A stretch of 64,000 nt of DNA. Source: Patescibacteria group bacterium. Lineage in GTDB: Bacteria > Patescibacteriota > Minisyncoccia > Phycocordibacterales > SIBU01. Where the stretch lies: the NCBI GenBank assembly GCA_040390045.1, contig JAZJZC010000004.1, positions 579-64,578 on the forward strand, written 5' to 3'. Under the pieces are notes generated by a model, which saw only the letters and a list, made by a program, of their open reading frames with translations, had not been told where the DNA came from and made no database searches. Position 1 is the first letter of the stretch. The number at the start of each line of letters is the position of its first letter. The translations under genes and the position numbers were made by a program. This document shows, piece after piece, positions 2,487 to 42,082 of this stretch.

Positions 2487-2491
2487 CAATG

Positions 2492-2528
2492 AACCGCGCG
2501 AAAGTCTAAACGACTTTCGCGCGGTTCA
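2492..2528 (+). terminator. perfect hairpin aaccgcgcgaaagtc-taaac-gactttcgcgcggtt immediately after tRNA-Ser
   Basis: A 15 bp perfect stem is visible in the sequence. Confidence 0.5.
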
Positions 2529-2535
2529 TCATTGC

Positions 2536-2657
2536 GTGGAGAGGGAGGGATTCGAACAGCAGAGTAAAATTTTTAGCAGAAAATTTTGTGAGCTGGTGCC
2601 CAGCCCGAGTTCGCTGACGAGCGAACGAGAGGTGCGGGCGAATCTCCTACCCTCCGC
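2536..2657. repeat. tRNA-3'-associated element, copy E1 (cognate tRNA-Ser GGA)
   Basis: Starts with the reverse complement of the tRNA-Ser T-arm/acceptor (ggagagggagggattcgaac). Ends with a direct copy-like sequence (ggcgaatctcctaccctccgca). Contains the shared core gagctggtgcccagcc...gagtcg...ttttctgct(a/g)aaaaa (reverse complement). Confidence 0.6.
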
Positions 2658-5181: not shown

Positions 5182-5305
5182 GAATTACAAAACCCCTCAA
5201 TCAACCCTTCTCTGTCCTTCCCGCGAAAGCGGGAATCCAGATTTCTCCCTTCAGTCCTAGATCCCCGCTTTCGCGGGGATGACACGTGAGAGGGTTTCGT
5301 AATTC
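5182..5305. terminator. 124 bp near-perfect palindrome between convergent genes (bidirectional terminator candidate)
   Basis: Outer arms are gaattacaaaacccctc and gagagggtttcgtaattc. Inner complementary hairpins are cccgcgaaagcggg and ccccgctttcgcgggg. Confidence 0.5.
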
Positions 5306-5320
5306 AAAGTAGCAAGAATC

Positions 5321-7216
5321 TCACTTTTGATCAGGAGTCTCAAGCATTTTCAAAAGCTCAGAAGTTTTAGCGGTTGCTACGCCGACAACTAAATCTGCCG
5401 CACCGTAGTAGAAAAATAACGTATCACCGCGCTCAATCACTCCACAGGGGAAAACTACGCCGGGCACGATACCTTTCCATTCATAATCTTCAACTGGTTC
5501 AAAAATCGGAAAGACGGAACGGGCGAGCACCACTGTCGGATCATTTTTATCTAGAAGAGCTACTCCGACTCGGTAATGTGTGGTGTTTGAGACACCGTGA
5601 TAAAAGAATAACCAACCTTTTTTAGTTTCAACTGGTGGACAGGCCAGGCCAATTCTGCCGCCATCCCACATGCCGCGACGAGGGTGGAGGAGTGGAATAC
5701 AGGTACGTACTGGTTCATTTTTCCAATCGAGAGAATCGACAAAGTCGGCGCAGATCAAATCATCAATACGGTGAATAATCATGTACTTGCCATTTATTTT
5801 TTTCGGGAGAATACAGGCATCTTTGTTGCCCACGGAAGCAAAGGTGATGAGACTTGGCGTTGACCAATTCCACTCGCCGTTTTGCAAATCTTTGACCGAG
5901 ATAGATGTACCGGCAACGCGAGGCGTGTTGCCATCGTACGCGGTGTAGAAAACATGAACACGATCTTTGATGAGTGTGGCGCGTGGGTCTTCACAACCCT
6001 TACTTTCAAAATCAACACGCGGAGTATAAATAGGTTTTTCTGATCGTTCGTCAATTGAAAAACCATCAAGCGACGTGGCGAGGCCGAAAGTTGAAATGTT
6101 GTCGCTCGAAACTGCGCGATAAAAAATATAAATTTTACCGTCAATTTCTACTGAGGCCGGATTAAATGTACCACGAGTTTCAAAGGCTTTATCGGGGCGG
6201 GGACTGATGATCGGATTATTTGGTCCGCGAACAAAAAGTGGCTTTTTCTCTACCATTGAGGCGAGGAATTTTTTTAAGTTGACGCGGGCGATGCAGGAGT
6301 GAGTATCAGCCGCACCGTAATAGATTTCTAAATTTTCGTCGGAAATTATGGCGCCGGTTGGGAAAATAATGTTTGGCACTTGCCCGACGCGTTCGTAATA
6401 TTCTTCAGGCACCAAAAATGAACCCTTGGTTCTGCCAATGATAAGACGCGGATTGTTTTTGTCCAAAAGTAGGGCTTCCACACCAAAACTTCGGTCACCT
6501 TGAAAATAATTTTGAATATGAGAGTACACCACAAGCCAGCCGAGCGACGTCAGAATGGGCGGCGCGCCGAGTTCCACTTGTTCGTTATTTCCGCGACGAA
6601 CGTTTAGGGTATGAAGAGAAATATCTCTTTTCCATTTCTCCCAAAACTCGGGATTCCACATGTCAGATTCTTTTTCGAATTCAACGTAGCAGATTTCAGA
6701 CGGCGGTTCGTCGGTGCGAATGGTAAGGAGTGCTGCGAATTTACCACCAATCTTTTTTGGAAACAGCGCCATGGCTTTGGCGTTAAAGGGAGTAATGGAA
6801 TGTTTCTCCATAATTTCCATTTTCTCGTTGACTTTGGCGAGAGCAATACGAATACCGTCTTTTTGAACGGGGTACATTGAAAGTGCGGTATAAAAAATAT
6901 AGTGAATTTTGTTGAAGGTAGTTACTCGAGCATCTTCACAACCGAATTTTTCCCACTCATGTTCGGGAGTGATGAATTCTTGACGATTGTCGAAATGCTG
7001 ACCGTCAGAACTTTGCGCCAGCCCGATCGTCGACACTGAACGTCTCACTCCGTCTTGCAGTTTCGATTCAGATTGCGCGCGATACACAGCGGCTGTTACG
7101 GGAGATTTTCCAACTGGAGGAATTGGACACCAATTAAAACTGCCAGCGGATTCCCATTCGTGGTGAACTTCGGGGGAGAGGATTGGATTGTGTTTATCGC
7201 GTTCAATTACAAACAT
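5321..7216 (-). CDS. glycoside hydrolase family 130 protein (glycoside phosphorylase-like), tandem two-domain
   Basis: Two GH130 repeats, each with NP(I/L)LSP, GCEDPR/GCEDAR and YYGAAD motifs. 631 aa. Confidence 0.7.
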   Translation of the reverse strand: MFVIERDKHNPILSPEVHHEWESAGSFNWCPIPPVGKSPVTAAVYRAQSESKLQDGVRRSVSTIGLAQSSDGQHFDNRQEFITPEHEWEKFGCEDARVTTFNKIHYIFYTALSMYPVQKDGIRIALAKVNEKMEIMEKHSITPFNAKAMALFPKKIGGKFAALLTIRTDEPPSEICYVEFEKESDMWNPEFWEKWKRDISLHTLNVRRGNNEQVELGAPPILTSLGWLVVYSHIQNYFQGDRSFGVEALLLDKNNPRLIIGRTKGSFLVPEEYYERVGQVPNIIFPTGAIISDENLEIYYGAADTHSCIARVNLKKFLASMVEKKPLFVRGPNNPIISPRPDKAFETRGTFNPASVEIDGKIYIFYRAVSSDNISTFGLATSLDGFSIDERSEKPIYTPRVDFESKGCEDPRATLIKDRVHVFYTAYDGNTPRVAGTSISVKDLQNGEWNWSTPSLITFASVGNKDACILPKKINGKYMIIHRIDDLICADFVDSLDWKNEPVRTCIPLLHPRRGMWDGGRIGLACPPVETKKGWLFFYHGVSNTTHYRVGVALLDKNDPTVVLARSVFPIFEPVEDYEWKGIVPGVVFPCGVIERGDTLFFYYGAADLVVGVATAKTSELLKMLETPDQK

Positions 7217-11320: not shown

Positions 11321-12439
11321 TTGGTATACTTGATGAAATATATGAAAATTATTCTACTAGTTGCCCGAGACGGGTTTAGTTTTATCAATCAGGCGGAAGC
11401 GCTGTCAAAAGGCTTACGTATCGTGAACATTGATCATAAAATTATTCGAATTGTTGACGAATTTCCAGAAAAAGAAATTAGGGAGTACAACCCGGATTGC
11501 ATACTCGGTATTGGTTCGTGGCATTCATATAAAGATTTCGTTGAAAAGCCTCGATTTCTCGGTATCCGCGCCGTTCCTTGGATAGTTTCCGATGATGCAT
11601 TTGATACATTTGTTAATGAGTATAATGAGCTCGATCTCATTTTGACGACCAGCGAATATTGTAAGAGTGTTTTTGTGCAAGGCGGAATCAAGAAGGATAT
11701 CGTGAAGGTTGTTCCAGAGGCCGTCAACGATGGTTTTTGGAAACCAATACTAGATGAGGATTTGTTGCCATTTATAAAGCGGATTTCAATTACCCATTCA
11801 GAAATAGTGTTACCACAGACTTTTGATCTTGAAAAAATAAAAGAAAAGGGTATTCCCATTCTTTTTACCACAGGCGGAGATGCAACGAGTAAAGGGGCGC
11901 TCGAGGTAATAGCCGCTCTTGGAAGGCTCGATAGGTCTGTTCCTTGGATTTATATATTAAAAACTTGGCCCTCAGAATTCAGCTTCGGTCGTTCAATTCT
12001 CGAGCTCGCGCTAGCGGAAAAGTTAGGTATTCGAGATAGGCTTAAGTATATTGTTGGAGAGTTTTCGGACGAGTTCATGCTCGGCCTTATGAATCTTTGT
12101 GATATCTATGTTGCGCCATCGCGGAGTGAAGGATTTGGTTTACCGCTTGTAGAAGCCCAGATGTGCGGAAAGCCCGTTATTACTATTGCGGCCACTGCGG
12201 CTCAAGAAACCATCAAGGATGGAAAGACCGGGTTTTTAGTTGGCCAAGACAGCGAAAGTAAATCACCGCGCGCCGATGTAAAAGCTCTTTCAGAGATTTT
12301 GGCAAAACTTCTTTCAAACCCAAGGCTTTGTGAAAAACTCGGTTCCCAAGGAGTAGCGTATTCCCGAGAACATTTCAGTCCCGAAGTTATTGTCAATCAA
12401 CTTTTGAAAGAATTAACTAACCAAAAATATGGTCACTAA
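11321..12439 (+). CDS. glycosyltransferase family 4 (group 1)
   Basis: The C-terminal EX7E-type motif VAPSRSEGFGLPLVEAQMCGKPVI is present. Confidence 0.7.
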   Translation: MVYLMKYMKIILLVARDGFSFINQAEALSKGLRIVNIDHKIIRIVDEFPEKEIREYNPDCILGIGSWHSYKDFVEKPRFLGIRAVPWIVSDDAFDTFVNEYNELDLILTTSEYCKSVFVQGGIKKDIVKVVPEAVNDGFWKPILDEDLLPFIKRISITHSEIVLPQTFDLEKIKEKGIPILFTTGGDATSKGALEVIAALGRLDRSVPWIYILKTWPSEFSFGRSILELALAEKLGIRDRLKYIVGEFSDEFMLGLMNLCDIYVAPSRSEGFGLPLVEAQMCGKPVITIAATAAQETIKDGKTGFLVGQDSESKSPRADVKALSEILAKLLSNPRLCEKLGSQGVAYSREHFSPEVIVNQLLKELTNQKYGH

Positions 12440-12932
12440 AAAGAGTCAATTTTTCGTACTCGCTGTGACCGCAATCCTCCTTTTGTCCTTTATAGTTTTT
12501 TGGAAAGTCAATCAAAAGGACATTGGCCTTTCGGAGCTAGCTGGTGAAGGAGACGTTAAAAACTCTGTAGAGCTTGATATAGGACATTCTCATCTTACGG
12601 TAATGATAGCCGACATCCCAGCCCTTCAAATAAAGGGTTTGGGTGGACGTGACTTTTTAGCCGACGACCAAGGAATGCTTTTTATATTTAAAGATTTAGC
12701 ATACCCAAGTATTTGGATGAAGGACATGCATTTTCCGATTGATATTTTGTGGTTTAATGATGAAAAAAAAGTGGTGAGCGTCGAAAAAAATGTTGCAACT
12801 TCCACATATCCCAAAATCTATACACCGAAATTGCCTGCGCGCTACGTTTTGGAGACAAATGCCGGTTTTTTTGAAAAAAATAATTTAAAAATTGGTAGTG
12901 AAATTTATTTTTCAAAAGAAGTTGCAAAGTAA
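12429..12932 (+). CDS. DUF192 domain protein
   Basis: The DUF192 pattern (MLFIFKD...MKDMHFPIDILWFNDEKKVV) follows an N-terminal TM helix. Confidence 0.55.
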   Translation: MVTKKSQFFVLAVTAILLLSFIVFWKVNQKDIGLSELAGEGDVKNSVELDIGHSHLTVMIADIPALQIKGLGGRDFLADDQGMLFIFKDLAYPSIWMKDMHFPIDILWFNDEKKVVSVEKNVATSTYPKIYTPKLPARYVLETNAGFFEKNNLKIGSEIYFSKEVAK

Positions 12933-15680: not shown

Positions 15681-15720
15681 AGAATCCCCCGCGCCACAGG
15701 CGCGGGGGATTCTTTTGTCG
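15681..15720 (+). terminator. rho-independent terminator of nrdJ (agaatcccccgcgcc-acag-ggcgcgggggattc + TTTT)
   Basis: 14 bp GC-rich stem followed by a T-run. Confidence 0.75.
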
Positions 15721-15791
15721 GTCGGAAAAATATTAAAAAAGAAAAACCTCGCGCGGACGCGAGGCATGGGCGAAGTAAAGCTCGTCAAAAA

Positions 15792-16565
15792 TCAGGGTGA
15801 TTTTTGACGAGGCGAGGAGGAGAGACTCTGCAAGCCCTCAGTTGGTCTGGCGGGTGCGTTCGTCGTCAAATTTTCGCCTATCGCCGCTTGATGTAACTGA
15901 AGTTTTCTCTTCTGCACGCCTTCGAGTGTTTCAAGCGGGGCCAAAACAGTCCCATCTGATTGGAGGTGAACGAAGAAGAACATTTCCTGTTTTTTGTCAC
16001 CATCGGAGGCCAGTTTCAATTTTGGATCATTAACTGGTTCAGCCCCAACCCAATTTTGAACAGGCACAAGTGAGAGGCATTTGCTTACCATAAATACATA
16101 TTCATCGCTGGTCGAATTGGTAATGTTTCGACGAACTCTACCCACGTACTGATAGTGGTCAGTAAAAAAATACGCCGTTTCCTTGTTGATAACCCCAATG
16201 ACCTTGTAGCCTGAGCGAATTTCGCGAGCAAGTTTTATCCATTCGGAATCAGTGTATTTGTTGCCGGAGCGTTCCCCACGCCAACTCCAGATTTCATCCA
16301 GTTGATCAGGTGTGTTCCCCACACCTGTCTTTAAATCTGCAAACAGGATATCGTCGCCAGTGAAATCTGCGCGGAGTAAACAGGTGTCAGTTCCGATTAA
16401 CCACATGCGTTCAACGGAGGTCACACCAGTTGCCCTAGTCTCGAATTTACTGTAGATCGGTGGGGTGGTTCTGAGCCAATACACGGAGGGCTCCTTTGCG
16501 TTCGTGACGAGGGCTGCAAGAAAAAGAACAACTGCGACAAACAGACGGCTAAGTAATTTTTTCAT
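15792..16565 (-). CDS. secreted hypothetical protein, paralog A
   Basis: Signal peptide present. Paralogous to 16779-17567 (NWVGAEPVNDPKLKLASDGD vs NWVGHEPVVGQLFTLASDGD). Confidence 0.6.
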   Translation of the reverse strand: MKKLLSRLFVAVVLFLAALVTNAKEPSVYWLRTTPPIYSKFETRATGVTSVERMWLIGTDTCLLRADFTGDDILFADLKTGVGNTPDQLDEIWSWRGERSGNKYTDSEWIKLAREIRSGYKVIGVINKETAYFFTDHYQYVGRVRRNITNSTSDEYVFMVSKCLSLVPVQNWVGAEPVNDPKLKLASDGDKKQEMFFFVHLQSDGTVLAPLETLEGVQKRKLQLHQAAIGENLTTNAPARPTEGLQSLSSSPRQKSP

Positions 16566-16778
16566 ATGTCAACTTTTACTGTATGCCGTGATATACAAGA
16601 TTATGGGGCGGAAGCCCATTCGTGCACGCTCGTGCAAGAACATTTCGTTATCCCGAACAGTCAGGCAAACAATTCCGAGCGTATTATGAATTATATATAA
16701 TAGTATGTCAATTTTTTTTCGGGGCGCGCAGAACAATATTAAAAAGAAAAAAACCTCGCGCGGACGCGAGGTTTTGAG

Positions 16779-17567
16779 TTACTTATTTTTCGGAGTGATG
16801 GCCTCTGTGACCTTCCTCACATCTTCGATCGACTTCGAAAGTTTTTCGCTTGGCGTTAGCCTAGCGTCAGCCTTCGCCTGTGCCAAATCCCTCTTGGCAT
16901 CAGCGATTTTTTCGGTGGTGTCGAGTGGCACGAGCACTTGGCCTCGAGCGTCGCGCGAAACAGCGAAGTAGATCTCCTCCTGTCTGTCGCCGTCTGACGC
17001 CAGAGTGAAAAGTTGACCCACTACCGGTTCATGTCCCACCCAATTTCGAACCGGGATCGACTTCAACCATTTGCCAGTTCGAAAAATGTACTCCCCTCCG
17101 TTTTGATCTGAGGAAGCTCGGAGCATTTTTCCAAGGCATTCAAATGGATCACGGAAACAGTAGGCAAAGTTCCCATTGACCAAGGCGATTTTCTGGTAGA
17201 ACTCGCGGTACTGTTGCGCCAACACGAGCCACGGTTCTTCTCCATTTTGAAGTCCCTTTTTGGATTCGGCAAGCGACCAATGCCAAATAGTTGCTTTACC
17301 CTCTGCTTTGTCTACGGTATCTATCCGCAGTTCAACTGGGCTAGTGTTTGTATTCGCAAACGAAGCAACAAGGTGATAGTCCGTGATCTCAAGTGACCAC
17401 ACCATTACCAAAATGTCTGCTACCCCCAGTTTACCTGAGATGAACTGGGTGAATGTCGGCGCGTTGGTGATGAGGGTTTGGGGTTGAACGGCGGGGGATT
17501 CCTGGGCGAAAAGCACCGAGGCAATGGTCATGAAAATGATGGCCACGAGTGAACTAAGAGTTTTCAT
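16779..17567 (-). CDS. secreted hypothetical protein, paralog B
   Basis: Tandem duplicate of 15792-16565. The terminators (cctcgcgcggacgcgagg) and the 130 bp upstream regions are also duplicated. Confidence 0.6.
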   Translation of the reverse strand: MKTLSSLVAIIFMTIASVLFAQESPAVQPQTLITNAPTFTQFISGKLGVADILVMVWSLEITDYHLVASFANTNTSPVELRIDTVDKAEGKATIWHWSLAESKKGLQNGEEPWLVLAQQYREFYQKIALVNGNFAYCFRDPFECLGKMLRASSDQNGGEYIFRTGKWLKSIPVRNWVGHEPVVGQLFTLASDGDRQEEIYFAVSRDARGQVLVPLDTTEKIADAKRDLAQAKADARLTPSEKLSKSIEDVRKVTEAITPKNK

Positions 17568-17857
17568 CGATGTAAATGTTCCGAGTGCCTTTTAACGGGA
17601 TCATGGAGCGAGAAGCCCATTCTTGCAAACAGCTACAAGAATTTTTCATGTTTCCGAACAGTCAGGTAAACTATTCTCGGCGCATTATAAATTATAAATT
17701 ACAAAATGTCAATTTATTGTAAAGAGAAAGCCGCCGCCCGTGAGGGCGGCGGCTTTCATGTGCTTTGTGTCTATAAGCCGAATTCTGTCCTTCGCTTGCG
17801 CGAATGGATAGTTATTTATCTGGGCCGCACATTGCTGTGTGGCTCAAGCGGCACTCG

Positions 17858-18527
17858 CCAATTTTGCCCACCACAGGTGGCGCAAAATTGAGCGTCCTGA
17901 GATTCGCCCTAATTAAGGCGAGCGAAGGGTCTTGACCCCTCGATTACTCGGGACGCTCAATTTTTCAGCTGCCTATGGCAGGAAAAATTGGCGCACGGCC
18001 TTGCACCCAGGTAAGGATTTTGTCGTTGCACTTCTCGTATTACTACGGAACTCGCCCCGACGTAAATCGGGGCGCTCCAAGGCTTTCGCGTCGGAGCGTC
18101 TCTGTTCGCACCTCTATCCTTGCGCCTGCCCGACTGAACGAGTCAGTCGTTCGGGCGGGGACGGCGGGCGTTACCTCCCGATGCCTTTCGGATCGGGATC
18201 CCGAATCCGCAAAGCGGACATCGGGACGCTACCATTCTCCCACGCACCTCGCTTCCACTCGGTGCGGAGTTCATCAAGTTGAAAGTTTCAAGTTTATAAA
18301 GTGAAGAGGAATTCTTACTTTAAAACTTTATAACTTTATGAACTTGTAACTGCATCGAACGAAAGTGAGATGCGCGGGGAGTGTTCGGACTTTCCTCGCC
18401 AATTTTGCCCACTAGAGATCGTTTTTCATAAACTCTGATTTTACAAAATTGGGCTGCCCTTCGATTTGCATAGGAGAGCAAATCTCAGGACGCTCAATTT
18501 TGCAACCACCTCCGGTGGGCAAAATTG
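17858..18527. repeat. 670 nt GC-rich, ORF-free structured element closed by a perfect 45 bp inverted repeat
   Basis: 17858-17900 (cgccaattttgcccacc-acag-gtggcgcaaaattgagcgtcctgag) is the exact reverse complement partner of 18481-18527. Sub-motifs (gacgctcaatttt, caaaattggcg) recur internally at 17951-17995 and 18401-18420. The interior is about 60% GC against an AT-rich background, with many local hairpins. Confidence 0.6.
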
Positions 18528-25611: not shown

Positions 25612-26064
25612 TTGCAACAAAAACGAGAGCTAGGCGGTTACTCGGGTCTACCAACTACCAACTATTTACTATATACTATTTTAATGCGCGAATTTGAACA
25701 CAAAAGGAAATTCCGTAAAATATTGTCATCGCCAATACTTTTGGTTCCGCTTGCCCTGATCGCTTTTTTTTCAGCTCGCGCAACATGGAATATTTACCTT
25801 AAGGATCGAGATTCTGTGGTCGAGTTGCAAACGTCTCAAGAACGTTTAGCTAAACTTGAGGGTCGTCAGGCCGAGCTTTCAGTGGCGACTGCAAAACTTT
25901 CAAGCGAGTCTGGCATTGAGGGTGAAATTCGAGATCGGTATCAAATGGCTAGGCAAGGGGAGAAAGAGGTGGTAATCGTAGAAAATCCATCGAGTAATCA
26001 GGCTACGCTTATTGTTAAAAAAGGTTTTTTCCAAAAAATTATTGATTTTTTTATGAAGAGATAA
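25612..26064 (+). CDS. FtsB/DivIC-like septum formation initiator (TM + coiled coil)
   Basis: TM helix followed by a coiled coil and a C-terminal (R/K)xxxxxGE(K/E)xVxV pattern (MARQGEKEVVIVE). The start is probably the internal ATG near 25685. Confidence 0.5.
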   Translation: MQQKRELGGYSGLPTTNYLLYTILMREFEHKRKFRKILSSPILLVPLALIAFFSARATWNIYLKDRDSVVELQTSQERLAKLEGRQAELSVATAKLSSESGIEGEIRDRYQMARQGEKEVVIVENPSSNQATLIVKKGFFQKIIDFFMKR

Positions 26065-26078
26065 CATAACTATGTTTT

Positions 26079-26190
26079 GCGGATATGGTTTAGTGGTAGA
26101 ATGCGTACCCCGTCATTCGACGGGGTAAACTTCCCAAGCAAGAGGCGCGGAGTTTCAAGTCATCTTATGACTTGACCCTGTCGGAGAGGC
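26079..26190 (+). pseudogene. decayed tRNA-Gly-like 5' portion (acceptor GCGGATA, D-arm, CTTCCCAAG anticodon-loop remnant, with 22 nt hairpin insertion)
   Basis: Resembles the intact tRNA-Gly at 26291 but cannot be folded into a cloverleaf. The matching acceptor 3' strand plus T-loop (gtttcgattctccctatccgca) lies 400 nt downstream at 26478-26503. Confidence 0.4.
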
Positions 26191-26290
26191 GTATCTTCTT
26201 GAAAGCGATGCTCGACGTCGAGAGCGGTATCTTAAAACAACAGAAGGAAAGAGATTTCTGAAACAACAAATAAGAGATTATTTAATTCAA

Positions 26291-26361
26291 GCGGGTATAG
26301 TATAGTGGCAATATGCGTGCTTCCCAAGCATGAGACGCGAGTTCAATTCTCGCTACCCGCA
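26291..26361 (+). tRNA. tRNA-Gly (anticodon CCC)
   Basis: Acceptor GCGGGTA/TACCCGC, anticodon stem CGTGC/GCATG with loop TTCCCAA, T-arm GCGAG-TTCAATT-CTCGC. Confidence 0.75.
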
Positions 26362-26519
26362 CACGTATAAAACATCGACAGATGTTTTATACGTGTGCGG
26401 GAATTGAAGCCCGATTGAGCATTTTTTCTAGTTTCTGAACGTAGAAAAAATCCAATCGCGGGTACTGAAACTGTAAGTTTCGATTCTCCCTATCCGCACA
26501 ATTACATTATAAAATTTAA

Positions 26520-27209
26520 ATGCTAAAAATTTCTTGCATCATTCCGGCCTATAATGAAGAGAAAAATATCACACGTGTTCTTCGGATTCTGGTCCCACTT
26601 ATCGGCACGGTGATTCACGAAGTGATCGTTGTCGATGATATGTCAGGTGACAATACGAAAGAAATTGTTAAAAATTTTTCGACAGTCCGACTGGTGGAGC
26701 ATCTAGTCAACGAAGGAAAAAGTAAAACTGTCTCTGATGGCATACAAAAATCAACTGGCGATTATATTTTGCTACTTGATGCGGACTTGCTGTACCTCAA
26801 TCAAGGCAACATCACTGATCTCATTACACCCATCAGTAACAACAGAGCCGACGTTACTATCAGTTTCAGAAAAAATGCCTGGCCACTTTTTCCTTTTAAG
26901 GATATTGATTATTTATCTGGCGAGAGAATTTTTCCTAAAAAACACGCGGCATCTTTTTTGGATGAGATGGCGCAATTGCCGGGCTATGGACTTGAGGTGT
27001 TTTTAAATAAAAATGTCATCATTCGCAATCAATTGCGTCTGGCGGTCGTGCAATGGCCAAATGTTGAAAACCAGCCTCATTATCGTAAAAAAGGTATACT
27101 TAAAGGCGCGCGTGTGATTGCCAAAATTTGGTGGAATGTGCTTCGTACTGCCTCAATCATTGAAATATTTAAACAAAATATTAGTATGCGGAAACTTCTT
27201 GTAAAATAA
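26520..27209 (+). CDS. glycosyltransferase family 2
   Basis: N-terminal GT2 signature (ISCIIPAYNEEKNI...VVDDMSGDNT...LLDADL). Confidence 0.7.
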   Translation: MLKISCIIPAYNEEKNITRVLRILVPLIGTVIHEVIVVDDMSGDNTKEIVKNFSTVRLVEHLVNEGKSKTVSDGIQKSTGDYILLLDADLLYLNQGNITDLITPISNNRADVTISFRKNAWPLFPFKDIDYLSGERIFPKKHAASFLDEMAQLPGYGLEVFLNKNVIIRNQLRLAVVQWPNVENQPHYRKKGILKGARVIAKIWWNVLRTASIIEIFKQNISMRKLLVK

Positions 27210-27210
27210 T

Positions 27211-27969
27211 ATGAAATTAAGTTTTGTTATACCTGCGTACAATGAGGAATCTTTAATTCGCCCGTGTCTCGAGTCTGTCTTACTGCAAACAGAATATCTT
27301 TTGGGTGAAGTTGAAATTATTGTTGTAAATAATGCGAGTACCGATAAAACGAAGGAGATCGCGCTCTCTTTTAAGCGGGTGGTGGTGGTTGACGAAGGGA
27401 AGAAAGGCTTAGTTAATGCCCGGCAGGCTGGTTTTTTGGCATCTACAGGGGATTTAATCGCTAACATTGATGCTGACACACGATTAACACCCGGTTGGGT
27501 GAACAAAGTTTTAAAGGAGTTTTCTAAAAGCGAAAGGTTGGTCGCTCTCAGCGGCCCATATATTTATTATGATTTATCAAGGGCGTACAATCTTTTAGTG
27601 CGCACATTTTATTATTTAGGATATATTAGTCATGTTATAAATCACAAGATTTTTCATATTGGAGCAATGCTCCAAGGTGGTAATTTTATTTTACGCCGCA
27701 GGGCTTTAGAGAAAATCGGAGGGTTTGATACCAGAATTATTTTTTATGGAGAGGATACGGATATTGCCAGACGAATTCAGAAAGTGGGGGAGGTAAAATT
27801 CGATTTTGCATTACCAATCTATTCTTCCGGAAGGCGTCTAAAAAAAGAGGGGATGCTTAGGAGTGCATGGCACTATTCAATCAATTATTTTTGGATCACT
27901 ATTTTTAAAAAACCTTTTACAGAAAATTATAACGACATTCGATCGAAGGCGGTAAAGCCAAAGAATTGA
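27211..27969 (+). CDS. glycosyltransferase family 2
   Basis: SFVIPAYNEE...IVVNNASTDKT...IDADT. Adjacent and paralogous to the previous gene. Confidence 0.7.
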   Translation: MKLSFVIPAYNEESLIRPCLESVLLQTEYLLGEVEIIVVNNASTDKTKEIALSFKRVVVVDEGKKGLVNARQAGFLASTGDLIANIDADTRLTPGWVNKVLKEFSKSERLVALSGPYIYYDLSRAYNLLVRTFYYLGYISHVINHKIFHIGAMLQGGNFILRRRALEKIGGFDTRIIFYGEDTDIARRIQKVGEVKFDFALPIYSSGRRLKKEGMLRSAWHYSINYFWITIFKKPFTENYNDIRSKAVKPKN

Positions 27970-28016
27970 ACTCGAATAACGTTATTGAACGGTAGGTTGC
28001 TATCAGTTATAATTAT

Positions 28017-28652
28017 TTGATGGGAAAACCCTCCTTATCAAAAATTGAAATCGATCAGATTGTTGACTTAAGAAAAAATGGTCACACACTCTCGGAAATT
28101 CAAGCTGTTGTTAAACGTGCTTACGGGACTGTGTTTAAATACATGAAGAACGTCTCTGTTTTACCTGAAAAAGAAGAATTTTGGAAAGTGAGACGTGGAG
28201 GTAGCAAGTTTCGTTCATTAAGTGAATGGCAAGAAGCGAAGGTAAAAGCTAAGAATTTGATTTTTCCAATTGGAAAAAAAGAGAGGCTTATTATTCTTGC
28301 CTGTTTGTACTGGGGAGAGGGCAATAAATCCGAACTCAATTTAATCAATAGTGATCCAGATTTGATCAGGTTGTTCGTTAGTTGTTTAAGGGATATTGGA
28401 GTTACTAAGGATCAACTCAAGGTATCAATTAGAATTTATGATGATGTCAATAAAAAGGAGGCGATAAGATTTTGGGCTGGTGTCGTGGGAATTTCTCCTG
28501 ATGAGATTTTGTCTGTTAATGTTTTGTTTGGTAAAAAGAAAGGAAAACTAAAGTACGGTATGTGTCGTGTGCGCGTCCAAAAGGGTAAATTATATTTCAA
28601 ATTGATAATGAGTATGATAGCCTTGATGAAAGAGAATTTATTGCTGCCGTAG
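28017..28652 (+). CDS. hypothetical protein with N-terminal HTH-like segment
   Basis: 211 aa. The N-terminus (LSKIEIDQIVDLRKNGHTLSEIQ) looks like an HTH. The 3' end overlaps the tRNA-Arg start by 10 nt. Confidence 0.4.
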   Translation: MMGKPSLSKIEIDQIVDLRKNGHTLSEIQAVVKRAYGTVFKYMKNVSVLPEKEEFWKVRRGGSKFRSLSEWQEAKVKAKNLIFPIGKKERLIILACLYWGEGNKSELNLINSDPDLIRLFVSCLRDIGVTKDQLKVSIRIYDDVNKKEAIRFWAGVVGISPDEILSVNVLFGKKKGKLKYGMCRVRVQKGKLYFKLIMSMIALMKENLLLP

Positions 28653-28717
28653 TTCAATGGATAGAACAAGACACTCCTAACGTCTAGATGCAGGTTCGAT
28701 TCCTGCCGGTGGCACCA
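28643..28717 (+). tRNA. tRNA-Arg (anticodon CCT), genomically encoded CCA
   Basis: Acceptor GCTGCCG/CGGTGGC (two GU pairs), anticodon stem AGACA/CGTCT with loop CTCCTAA, T-arm GCAGG-TTCGATT-CCTGC, then ACCA. Confidence 0.7.
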
Positions 28718-28732
28718 AAATAAAAAATAAAA

Positions 28733-28760
28733 ACGCGCATATGGTGCGCGTTTTGGGCTT
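28733..28760 (+). terminator. hairpin acgcgca-tatgg-tgcgcgt + TTTT after tRNA-Arg
   Basis: Stem plus T-run. Confidence 0.6.
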
Positions 28761-29839: not shown

Positions 29840-29868
29840 CAAATGAGCGGAGCGAATTGGCTTGGGAA

Positions 29869-30092
29869 GCACGAGAATAATTTCTCGTGAGTCCAGATTC
29901 GAACGCCGGAACGATGCCGAGCCAGCAGGCGAGGCCGTGAGGCGGTGGCCAGAAAAATTTTTTTGGCGAAAAAAATTTATTCGCGGCCGAATCTGTTCCT
30001 ATTTTCTCACCAGAAGAAACTGGCGAGCTGGTGGGCAGACCGGGGTGAGTGACGACGAACCTTGAGTCGCGCCCGAATCTGTCCCGCCCAAG
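29869..30092. repeat. tRNA-3'-associated element, copy E2 (cognate tRNA-Phe)
   Basis: Begins with gcttggga[hairpin]ccagattcgaac, the reverse complement of the tRNA-Phe 3' end with a hairpin inserted. Ends gcccgaatctgtcccgcccaag (direct copy-like). Contains the shared core gagctggtgggcagacc...gagtcgcgcccgaatc. Confidence 0.6.
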
Positions 30093-39689: not shown

Positions 39690-39844
39690 GGCGGAGGAGG
39701 GGGTGAGATTAGGTCACAAGTATTTTCTTGCTAGAAAATCTTGCGACCCCGCCTCGCGCCGTCGCGCTCCGGCTTTCGAATCCCCCTCCTTGCTCGCAAT
39801 GATGAACTGCTCGGACTTCGTTTAGAAGTCCTTACAGCTCATTG
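39690..39844. repeat. tRNA-3'-associated element, copy E4 (cognate tRNA-Ser CGA on minus strand)
   Basis: The far end (ggcggaggagggggtgagatt) is a reverse-complement copy of the tRNA 3' end. The middle contains an opposite-strand T-loop/acceptor copy (ggctttcgaatccccctcc) and the gcgac...gtcgc hairpin seen in other copies. More divergent than E1-E3. Confidence 0.45.
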
Positions 39845-40110: not shown

Positions 40111-40310
40111 CAAAAATAATGAGGGCGTTGCGAAGCAATGACGGATTTTATTTTTGTAGACACTGCGGGGAGTCGAAGGACGGAGCGGAATGAGACTCAG
40201 CAGAGTCGAACCGCGAGTCGGGGTCGCGGAAATTTCTGAGCGAGGGCGAAGAAATTATCTGTGACCGAAAGCGTACTCGCGGCTCCCAGTTAAGGTCACA
40301 AAAGCGGTTT
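40111..40310. repeat. tRNA-3'-associated element, copy E5 (cognate tRNA-Glu)
   Basis: Contains gcggggagtcgaaggacgg (reverse complement of the tRNA-Glu T-arm), the core-like agagtcgaaccgcgagtcggggtcgcgg, and a distal gtcacaaaagcgg resembling the tRNA 3' flank. Confidence 0.45.
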
Positions 40311-41909: not shown

Positions 41910-41926
41910 CATTGAGTCCACGAAAT

Positions 41927-42082
41927 GTGGGCGGTAAGGAGGCAAATTGTTTTGCCTCCGTGAGGATTCGAACAGCGGAACCATGTTTTTTCAGCAGAAA
42001 AAACAGGTGAGCTGGTGTCCAGACCAAAGTGAGCGACGGCGAGCTTTGAGTCGCGGGCGAATCCTTTACTTCTACCGCCCAC
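41927..42082. repeat. tRNA-3'-associated element, copy E3 (cognate tRNA-Val)
   Basis: Begins with gtgggcggtaagg (reverse complement of the tRNA-Val acceptor 3' end) and ggattcgaac. Core: caggtgagctggtgtccagacc...gagcgacggcgagc...gagtcgcgggcgaatc. Ends ttctaccgcccac, identical to the tRNA-Val 3' end. Confidence 0.65.

Follow-up and report, generated by a model that had tools for sequence, protein, structure and literature searches.

How does a complete transfer RNA (tRNA) gene come to lie between two separated parts of another tRNA gene for the same isoacceptor? The question is raised by a stretch of 64,000 nucleotides (nt) from a Patescibacteria group bacterium (assembly GCA_040390045.1, contig JAZJZC010000004.1), which is called the window throughout and whose positions are counted from its first letter. 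At 26079-26498 of the window, an intact tRNA-Gly(CCC) gene (the inner tRNA) is enclosed by parts of a second tRNA-Gly(CCC) gene (the outer tRNA), next to a small structured element of a kind that also trails other tRNA genes. A previous reading of the letters alone (the sequence-only reading) had proposed either that an old tRNA-Gly gene was split by a segment carrying a new copy or that the locus encodes an unusual intron-containing or permuted precursor. We consider the locus to be, quite probably, the scar of a tRNA gene replacement, and the first proposal was essentially right: the separated halves were called as a tRNA gene when rejoined, and the two genes belong to a resident and a foreign lineage. 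The parts of the outer gene are listed below; handles of the form L001 denote fetched loci.

26079-26108, forward strand: outer tRNA-Gly(CCC), positions 1-31 (read in the sequence; part of the ARAGORN call after in-silico joining)
26079-26085, forward strand: outer acceptor 5' strand, GCGGATA (read in the sequence)
26088-26102, forward strand: outer D-arm (read in the sequence; identical in many relatives)
26104-26108, forward strand: outer anticodon-stem 5' strand, CGTAC (read in the sequence)
26109-26130, forward strand: 22-nt insert between tRNA positions 31 and 32 (GC-clamped hairpin plus TAAAC)
26108-26125, forward strand: perfect hairpin of 7 base pairs (bp), CCCCGTC-ATTC-GACGGGG, followed by the TAAAC of the insert (read in the sequence)
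26131-26137, forward strand: outer anticodon loop, TTCCCAA (read in the sequence)
26138-26142, forward strand: outer GCAAG (read in the sequence)
26148-26152, forward strand: outer T-stem 5' strand, CGGAG (read in the sequence)
26131-26161, forward strand: second stretch of the outer tRNA, from the anticodon loop through the variable region to a decayed T-loop-like TTTCAAGTC (alignment to the tRNA-Gly genes of L136 and L011)
26479-26485, forward strand: 3' remnant, T-loop copy, TTCGATT
26486-26490, forward strand: 3' remnant, T-stem 3' strand, CTCCC
26491-26497, forward strand: 3' remnant, acceptor 3' strand, TATCCGC
26498, forward strand: 3' remnant, discriminator A

The stretch at 26079-26152 corresponds to the 5' three-quarters of a tRNA-Gly(CCC) gene, that is, its first 53 positions. 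The acceptor strand GCGGATA, the D-arm, and the anticodon-loop remnant that had been described at 26079-26150 were all present as quoted, with the fragment reaching 26152, and the described 22-nt hairpin interruption is the insert at 26109-26130 with its perfect 7-bp stem. The acceptor 3' strand with T-loop, placed earlier at 26478-26503, was also found as a complementary segment, but it occupies 26479-26498, so that the end had been set 5 nt too far. When 26079-26108, 26131-26152, and 26479-26498 were joined in silico, ARAGORN called a 73-nt tRNA-Gly(CCC) at its default settings, with a perfect 7-bp acceptor stem and a T-stem paired at four of five positions, whereas it called nothing for the outer gene when either insert was retained. 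The 17-mer GATTCTCCCTATCCGCA, for which 0.11 matches with three or fewer mismatches were expected by chance, had just two occurrences, one at 26482-26498 and the other, with 3 mismatches, where the inner tRNA has its own 3' end; these two sites form a direct repeat (26345-26361 and 26482-26498) sharing 14 of 17 positions. The stem differences of the 3' remnant from the inner tRNA (T68 and C64) are those that pair with A5 and G50 of the outer gene. Furthermore, the metagenome contig L136 carries an intact tRNA-Gly(CCC) gene with the same stems, GCGGATA/TATCCGC (a rare acceptor pair) and GGGAG/CTCCC, the first 23 nt and last 20 nt of which are identical to the two outer fragments. The compensated stem differences and the intact L136 gene indicate that the two fragments derive from one formerly functional gene version.

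That version no longer exists as a working gene at this locus. In the native state, the outer gene was called by neither the tRNA finder nor the Rfam tRNA model, and neither ARAGORN nor Rfam recognized a complete conventional tRNA in its 5' part; a tRNA of that kind there was part of what the sequence-only reading had named as able to refute its proposal. The 5' part runs into TTTCAAGTC and the adjoining region b (26155-26290), with neither a T-stem 3' strand nor an acceptor 3' strand. In the rejoined gene, pairs 28:42 and 30:40 (two of the five anticodon-stem pairs) and 49:65 are mismatched, and the sequence can be called by ARAGORN, but the call is lost if an extra T (TTTCGATT) is retained. 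A chimeric tRNA with a host 5' part and an element-derived 3' part has not been regenerated at the locus, which holds a complete second tRNA instead. With homology to a tRNA, a disrupted structure, and an intact inner isoacceptor present, the outer gene is, judged from its sequence, a pseudogene of the ancestral resident tRNA-Gly(CCC) beside divIC.

Between the outer halves lie the following features, ahead of the trailing element.

26291-26361, forward strand: inner tRNA-Gly(CCC), with no encoded CCA (ARAGORN; Rfam tRNA model, 67.9 bits)
26356-26376 with 26381-26401, forward strand: 21-bp perfect hairpin, into which the final 6 nt of the inner tRNA extend
26155-26290, forward strand: region b, consisting of the hairpin TCAAGTCAT-CTT-ATGACTTGA at 26155-26175 and then ~115 nt of unique sequence

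The intact tRNA-Gly(CCC) that had been located at 26291-26361 was borne out by ARAGORN and by an Rfam score of 67.9 bits. All its stems are paired, and it is the sole tRNA called by either program at 26079-26498. It is probably the only working copy, splicing of the outer halves being unlikely, and it is presumably cut out by ribonuclease P (RNase P) and a 3' processing enzyme, after which CCA is added. Two perfect hairpins had been described near it. The first exists and is longer than claimed, at 21 bp, whereas the second (cgggaattgaagcccg) has a stem of only 4 bp and is better explained as part of helices P0 and P1 of the trailing element. In the 21-bp hairpin, the 3' end of the inner tRNA, CCCGCA, and its trailer pair with an antisense copy ending in TGCGGG, and the order acceptor 3' strand, palindromic spacer, anti-acceptor also occurs behind other tRNAs. 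The last ~20 nt of region b resemble the AT-rich flanks 5' of tRNA-Gly genes in other genomes. Two origins of region b were considered and rejected. Suggestive tblastn fragments had hinted at a divIC/ftsB remnant from a donor; however, a profile of 30 C-termini gave the real frames no advantage over 500 shuffles. For a decayed class B core, there was a loose motif resemblance without BLAST support. There was no open reading frame (ORF) of at least 40 amino acids on either strand within 26153-26478, the flanking genes being the divIC-like gene and glycosyltransferases, and a promoter and terminator scan of the locus found nothing beyond the shuffle background.

To establish which gene is resident, we compared the locus with 80 related loci, fetched from Paceibacteria/Parcubacteria genomes with LepA as the anchor. 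The gene order LepA, divIC-like gene, tRNA-Gly(CCC), tRNA-Arg(CCT), tRNA-Phe(GAA) is widely kept among these relatives. The closest genomes, L001, L002, and L003 (85, 82, and 76% LepA identity, respectively), have a single uninterrupted tRNA-Gly(CCC) gene after divIC, and such empty sites, seen in a comparison that the sequence-only reading had suggested, are what an insertion would predict. The outer 5' fragment and ~8 nt of its upstream flank aligned with the post-divIC tRNA-Gly genes of L041, L061, L002, and others; against the L002 gene, 26 of 27 positions matched (E = 1e-6). The inner tRNA, in contrast, was 86-88% identical to the tRNA-Gly genes of genomes at 65-71% LepA identity, but its identity to the tRNA-Gly genes of L001 and L003, which are close relatives, was only 77% and 74%, respectively. 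The inner gene and the rejoined outer gene are identical at 59 of 72 positions (13 of 72 differ), and their D-arms are of different lineages. These sequence comparisons mark the inner tRNA as foreign to the lineage and the outer gene as resident. In the four closest genomes, four acceptor-stem types of tRNA-Gly(CCC) were found at this syntenic site, which points to repeated gene replacement.

The 3' remnant of the outer gene forms the end of an element of ~100 nt with the following parts.

26400-26498, forward strand: class C tRNA-trailing element, ~100 nt (alignment with 50 other copies)
26400-26408 with 26479-26487, forward strand: class C helix P0
26410-26417 with 26453-26462, forward strand: class C helix P1
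26421-26430 with 26442-26451, forward strand: class C helix P2
26467-26481, forward strand: class C hairpin P3, GAAAC-UGUAA-GUUUC
26479-26498, forward strand: terminal tRNA 3'-end copy of the class C element, which fits the outer gene and not the inner one

The suspected kinship of the locus to tRNA-trailing elements was thus well founded, its 3' half being the right end of a class C element. We define class C by the layout GAAUCGAA, P1/P2 arm, GUAC, P3 (NNNC-UGUAA-GNNN), GAUUC, and tRNA 3' strand, with covarying helices. The window element, in the order GAAUUGAA, P1/P2 arm, GUAC, GAAAC-UGUAA-GUUUC, GAUUC, tRNA 3' strand, aligns to this layout throughout. In 25 diverse class C copies, standard pairs occurred in 94.3% of the cells compared with 71.6% in column shuffles (0/500), the covariation score was 0.566 compared with 0.166 in shuffles (reached in 0/500), and sliding the 3' pair partners by 1-3 columns left no more than 55.5% paired. 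The three variable pairs of P3 showed four pair types each and no broken cell, also in 50 copies. In 42 of 50 copies (p = 1.5e-8), folding was more stable for the sense than for the antisense strand, and the 65 G-U pairs in the predicted helices are sense-strand specific. This strand bias, together with the covariation, suggests that the structure forms in a single strand of tRNA polarity; RNA is the more probable form of this strand and single-stranded DNA the less probable. The P3 loop, UGUAA, is invariant and fits the U-G-N-R-A T-loop motif. No Rfam family matched the trailing elements, either at the gathering threshold or at E <= 10, with hits to tRNAs only. By alignment and covariation, the segment at 26400-26498 is a member of a covarying structured element family that is not in Rfam.

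A metagenome scan with the class C right-end motif (anchored on GATTC) gave at least 120 matches, with 80 loci examined. Among the matches listed, 57 copies had a tRNA gene no more than 450 nt upstream, representing at least 21 anticodon species. For 32 of them, identity to the 3' strand of the upstream tRNA extended over all 12 nt that follow GATTC; 4 copies had 1 mismatch, 5 had 2-3, and 16 had at least 4, the last group being mostly truncated, with a few ending in the 3' end of another tRNA. The terminal copy of the window belongs to the small mismatched class, as do those of L003, L005, L072, and L087. The right edge of class C abuts tRNA position ~56, and the right flank was a T-loop-to-acceptor tRNA copy in every case, while the left arm of the element carries the antisense of the same segment. 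The window copy shares 83.5% identity with its counterpart in L010 and 80% with one behind the tRNA-Arg gene of L073, suggesting that one core subfamily moves between tRNA genes. A phage or plasmid origin of the elements was also considered and rejected: the phage and plasmid collections gave no match, and the viral contigs gave no class C match and one class B match, which resembles a tandem array of the Patescibacteria type.

Nested and orphan tRNA fragments recur in relatives. In L010 (11661-11845), an intact tRNA-Gly(CCC) lies within the anticodon stem of a second, almost intact tRNA-Gly(CCC), flanked by an 11-bp inverted repeat (CCCTGTTAAAT/ATTTAACAGGG), and the outer gene retains a matching class C element. 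The right end of this insert (GGGTGAAC|TTCCCAA) is homologous to that of the window insert (GGGGTAAAC|TTCCCAA), and the window, L010, and L069 share the right end GGGTRAAC|TTCC at one and the same tRNA position. In L073 (11380-11730), a tRNA-Arg(CCT) gene lies between a D-arm remnant and the intact anticodon-arm-to-3'-end part of an older tRNA-Arg, which still has its own class C element; in the same locus (12388-12566), an intact tRNA-Phe gene is preceded by a tRNA-Phe 5' fragment whose D-loop holds a GC-clamped hairpin. Orphan 5' fragments upstream of intact genes were found in L029, L061, L069, and L073.

In the replacement that we propose, the resident tRNA-Gly(CCC) after divIC is now interrupted twice, at the boundary of the anticodon stem and loop by the 22-nt hairpin and in the T-loop by about 320 nt comprising a complete tRNA-Gly(CCC) of another lineage, the 21-bp hairpin, and the ~100-nt class C element. 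A unit bearing the foreign tRNA-Gly and the class C element may have integrated at the T-loop; alternatively, a class C element may already have been resident, and the 3' part of the old gene may have been lost by a crossover in the conserved GUAC-P3-GAUUC. Both routes would leave the old gene's 3' sequence in the terminal copy, and retention of this sequence explains why the copy pairs with the upstream 5' fragment. The 3' fragment may have been cut off from the old gene, or it may be the terminal repeat of an element that stood behind that gene beforehand; it is templated by the old gene version in either case. A recombinase encoded by the host or acting in trans would have made the event, and we infer recombination at the T-loop junction of the elements.

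Several observations weigh against this replacement scenario. Region b had no homolog among the 203 fetched loci, so that the donor was not traced; no recombinase, transposase, or plausible ORF was found in or beside the insert; and the phage and plasmid collections contained nothing similar to the elements, that is, no free, phage-borne, or plasmid-borne form. In addition, the 18 nt at 26436-26453 are covered by the window assembly alone. A plain attP/integrase model leaves unexplained why the left arm is antisense to whichever tRNA precedes it. The outer acceptor stem is still paired at 7/7 positions although the anticodon stem has decayed, and the same insertion end at 31/32 occurs in three genomes at only ~70% LepA identity; the outer arms could therefore be under selection and not debris. 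By analogy, a folded single-strand attachment (att) site, as in CTX-phi, or a functional mimic of the tRNA top half would explain the antisense left arm. A broader reading, which we offer tentatively as possible rather than probable, is that Patescibacteria harbor a family of ORF-less, strand-specific elements that home to tRNA position ~56, carry whole tRNA genes, and drive lateral tRNA replacement, with the outer halves acting as closing arms that resemble the tRNA top half. As part of the same tentative reading, the Gly locus would be an element caught with its tRNA cargo.

Among the alternatives to a replacement scar, the one that survives best, though we think it unlikely, is that the outer halves and the class C core form one functional single-stranded RNA or DNA, the arms of which mimic the acceptor/T-stem top half of a tRNA. 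Ordinary trailing units would then be the compact form, the unit at this locus would enclose a tRNA gene, and the structure might serve in self-propagating T-loop homing, as a decoy, or as a processing signal; the units would then represent a new element class that mimics tRNAs or targets them. The ordinary units bear directly on this alternative, and five further elements, each of 150-250 nt, were found in the window.

2488-2657, forward strand: trailing element behind tRNA-Ser(GGA), class A
29841-30092, forward strand: trailing element behind tRNA-Phe, class A, with an internal partial duplication
39691-39843, reverse strand: trailing element behind tRNA-Ser(CGA), class B
40112-40299, forward strand: trailing element behind tRNA-Glu, class B, with a degenerate terminal copy
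41911-42082, forward strand: trailing element behind tRNA-Val, class A

Each consists of a hairpin, an antisense tRNA 3' segment (covering the acceptor 3' strand, the T-stem 3' strand, and the T-loop), a structured core, and a sense copy. The layout of a unit is acceptor 5' strand, hairpin H, T-stem 5' strand, GAAUCGAA, core, T-loop copy, T-stem and acceptor 3' strands, and discriminator, with CCA at the end only where the tRNA gene encodes CCA. This series of acceptor-like arms, hairpin H, core, and tRNA 3' copy favors a top-half mimic, as do the strong covariation, the sense-strand-specific G-U pairs, the P3 loop UGUAA, which fits the U-G-N-R-A T-loop motif, and the outer gene itself, in which the acceptor stem is paired at 7/7 and the T-stem at 4/5 positions despite the decayed anticodon stem. 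Furthermore, the lone units in L141 and L163 keep 11-bp acceptor-like arms with no tRNA within 450 nt. Weighing against it, units are patchy among close relatives (1/6 tRNAs in L001 and 6/7 in the window), suggesting that they are dispensable for tRNA function, and terminator-like hairpins precede many of them. Compact units also carry an antisense T-loop after the T-stem 5' strand, whereas the outer fragment has the sense remnant TTTCAAGTC, which indicates that the outer gene is not built like the left arm of a unit.

Around the LepA loci, 22 tRNAs had a downstream copy of their own 3' end (12 nt with at most 1 mismatch, mostly at a distance of 90-220 nt) and none had an upstream copy. There are at least four core classes (A-D), and class is independent of tRNA identity. 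The near-constant hairpin H (about GCAAGCAAACUGCUUUGCUUGC) lies between the anti-acceptor and anti-T-stem strands in classes A, B, and C behind different tRNAs, and was seen in L002, L005, L008, L033, L042, L059, and the viral contig L081 (2950-3210, reverse strand). Its conservation across isotypes suggests a module and not a vestigial anticodon arm, and the idea that compact units are decayed old tRNAs was rejected on this ground. An origin of the repeats from reverse-transcribed mature tRNA was likewise rejected: the repeats lack CCA wherever the gene lacks it, indicating that they were copied from DNA. Stand-alone units with no tRNA within 450 nt were observed in L141 (~11950-12080), L163 (~5190-5330), and L140 (~5990-6100), with coordinates for loci turned so that the class C motif is on the forward strand. 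They are complete, comprising a terminator-like hairpin, anti-acceptor, hairpin H, anti-T-stem, GAATCGAA, class C core, and tRNA 3' copy. Tandem units occur in L011, L050, and L124. The presence and class of elements vary among close relatives at the same tRNA, with one unit behind the six tRNAs of L001 and six behind the seven of the window, suggesting that units are gained and lost quickly.

A tandem duplication of tRNA-Gly by replication slippage at hairpins, with decay of the upstream copy and with neither a mobile element nor lateral transfer, is improbable. Slippage would suit the five-fold enrichment of perfect 7-bp hairpins in the window (149 versus 28 in shuffles), the identical tandem unit copies in L011, L050, L124, and L154, and the tRNA-Phe 5' fragment of L061, which is 100% identical to the adjacent gene. 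However, the inner and outer genes differ at 13/72 positions and have D-arms of separate lineages, and it is the outer gene that fits the resident gene of relatives; the 3' remnant lies downstream of the intact gene, so that the arrangement is nested and not tandem; and the adjoining class C core is 80-84% identical to copies behind other tRNAs elsewhere.

The intron-containing or permuted precursor envisaged by the sequence-only reading would require the outer tRNA-Gly to be expressed and repaired at the RNA level, from an intron-containing, split, or permuted transcript, and we judge this very improbable. The positions of the inserts (anticodon region and T-loop) and the flanking helices resemble those of archaeal disrupted tRNAs, the rejoined sequence can be called as a tRNA, and the L010 insert at 31/32 is closed by an 11-bp helix. 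Nevertheless, a cmscan of 25900-26700 at E <= 10 gave no group I or group II intron match (including RF00028), and ARAGORN in its intron mode, the check proposed earlier, found only the inner tRNA in the native locus. Neither the insert junctions nor the T-loop junctions showed the bulge-helix-bulge geometry (3-nt bulge, 4-bp helix, 3-nt bulge); the hairpin of the 22-nt insert adjoins the anticodon stem 5' without any bulge, and 5 nt stay unpaired 3' of it. Removing the insert leaves a broken anticodon stem, a redundant intact isoacceptor lies inside the locus, and the arrangement is absent from L001-L003, where the gene is uninterrupted.

Independently assembled Logan contigs of run SRR26324623 are identical to the window up to 26435 and from 26454 onward, the break falling within P2, the AT-rich hairpin of the class C element, which indicates that such elements fragment short-read assemblies; no same-species contig carried an alternative allele, and these exact proteins occurred in one sample only. 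That two strain variants were merged in this hairpin into an assembly chimera is hardly credible despite the 18 nt without independent cover, because an independent contig (L083) carries the 5' fragment and the inner tRNA in one piece, the complementary P1 strands (26410-26417 and 26453-26462) lie on two different contigs, palindromes such as the one at the break are known to interrupt de Bruijn graphs, and mismatched terminal copies occur in other assemblies too.

Several known systems resemble a replacement scar bordered by a trailing element in part. Tyrosine-integrase elements reportedly insert in tRNA genes with the att crossover in the T-loop or the anticodon loop, as Williams is said to have described in 2002. 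As in such integrative elements, the insertions here are at two classical tRNA sublocations, a direct repeat from the T-loop to the 3' end (with CCA when encoded) flanks the insert, variable cargo lies 3' of the tRNA (the 1-kilobase (kb) ORF segment of L012 and the 2.1-kb glycosyltransferase block of the window), and empty sites exist in relatives (L001, L002, and L003). In contrast to them, there is no integrase here and the inserts are of 100-330 nt without an ORF, a conserved covarying core and an antisense copy of the tRNA 3' end are present, and a whole tRNA came with the insert, leaving the old 5' part orphaned. CTX-phi and the XerCD 'IMEX' elements integrate as single strands via a folded att hairpin, using host recombinases. 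The elements described here likewise have no recombinase of their own, adjacent inverted and direct copies of the target, through which one strand could fold to mimic the duplex target, and a strand-specific structure; however, the target is dif in those elements and would be the tRNA T-arm here, and the elements here are 20-fold smaller and have no replication genes, so that the likeness is an analogy only.

In Archaea, Sugahara et al. (2012, PMC3293823) described a tRNA 5' fragment that a mobile element had left ahead of an intact copy. As at the present locus, the fragment lies 5' of an intact gene for the same isoacceptor with inserted DNA between them, and the arrangement was read as mobile-element integration or recombination within a short time frame. 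The archaeal insert is 1.8 kb long and has a recombinase, whereas that in this bacterium (Paceibacteria) is 0.3 kb long and has none; moreover, there is no bulge-helix-bulge intron here, and the intact gene is nested between both remnants. The tRNA-like domain of transfer-messenger RNA (tmRNA), viral tRNA-like structures, and mascRNA have, like the trailing units, helices resembling the acceptor and T-stem that end in a discriminator (plus CCA where encoded) and are joined to a non-tRNA domain. In the units, however, the extra domain replaces the T-loop and not the anticodon/D region, the arms copy a neighboring tRNA of any isotype, and no Rfam tRNA-clan match was found. The group I intron of the cyanobacterial tRNA-Leu(UAA) is similarly a few hundred structured nt interrupting a bacterial tRNA gene; the sites here are at 31/32 and in the T-loop rather than within the anticodon loop, and the present locus differs further in having no group I core, a decayed host gene, and an intact second gene inside the insert.

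The surroundings of the locus also vary. At 26520-28652 of the window, two family-2 glycosyltransferase genes and a 211-amino-acid ORF without a Pfam match part tRNA-Gly from tRNA-Arg by 2.1 kb, the ORF overlapping the start of tRNA-Arg, while the two tRNAs are 13 nt apart in L001. Other cargo, of 1.9-4.2 kb, lies between them in L006, L011, L012, and L056, and these differences in cargo indicate an insertion hot spot. The ORF at 28017-28652 was considered as a LAGLIDADG homing endonuclease and rejected, having no Pfam match, and no second copy of the tRNA-Gly 3' end was found at the far side of the glycosyltransferase block. The tRNA-Arg(CCT) gene (28643-28717) is the sole tRNA gene of the window with an encoded CCA and the sole one without a trailing element; a terminator-like GC hairpin and T run lie 3' of it, at about 28730-28755. 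In L012 (12501-13945), ~1 kb with a 163-amino-acid reverse-strand ORF (no Pfam match) separates tRNA-Gly from a class B unit and its terminal repeat, showing that cargo can sit between a tRNA and its unit. The five-fold excess of perfect 7-bp hairpins in the window (149 versus 28 in shuffles) includes a cluster of GC-rich hairpins at 15687-18074, where the identical hairpin CCTCGCG-CGGA-CGCGAGG occurs twice, at 15747-15764 and 16754-16771, 1007 nt apart.

The nested gene itself is best read as a pseudogene scar, of interest mainly as a record of tRNA replacement at the boundary of an undescribed element family. It offers a clear bacterial example of the disruption and replacement of a tRNA gene in place, a process hitherto discussed mainly for Archaea in relation to the origin of split and intron-containing tRNAs. 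The locus also draws attention to an abundant, unannotated, covarying element beside tRNA genes in candidate phyla radiation genomes, which accompanies at least 21 anticodon species among the matches listed. In practical terms, such elements break short-read assemblies, confuse annotation with tRNA fragments, and mark insertion hot spots in very small genomes. Should the elements prove mobile, they would target tRNA genes in a new manner that requires no recombinase gene of their own; should they prove to be functional RNAs, they would constitute a new class of tRNA mimic.

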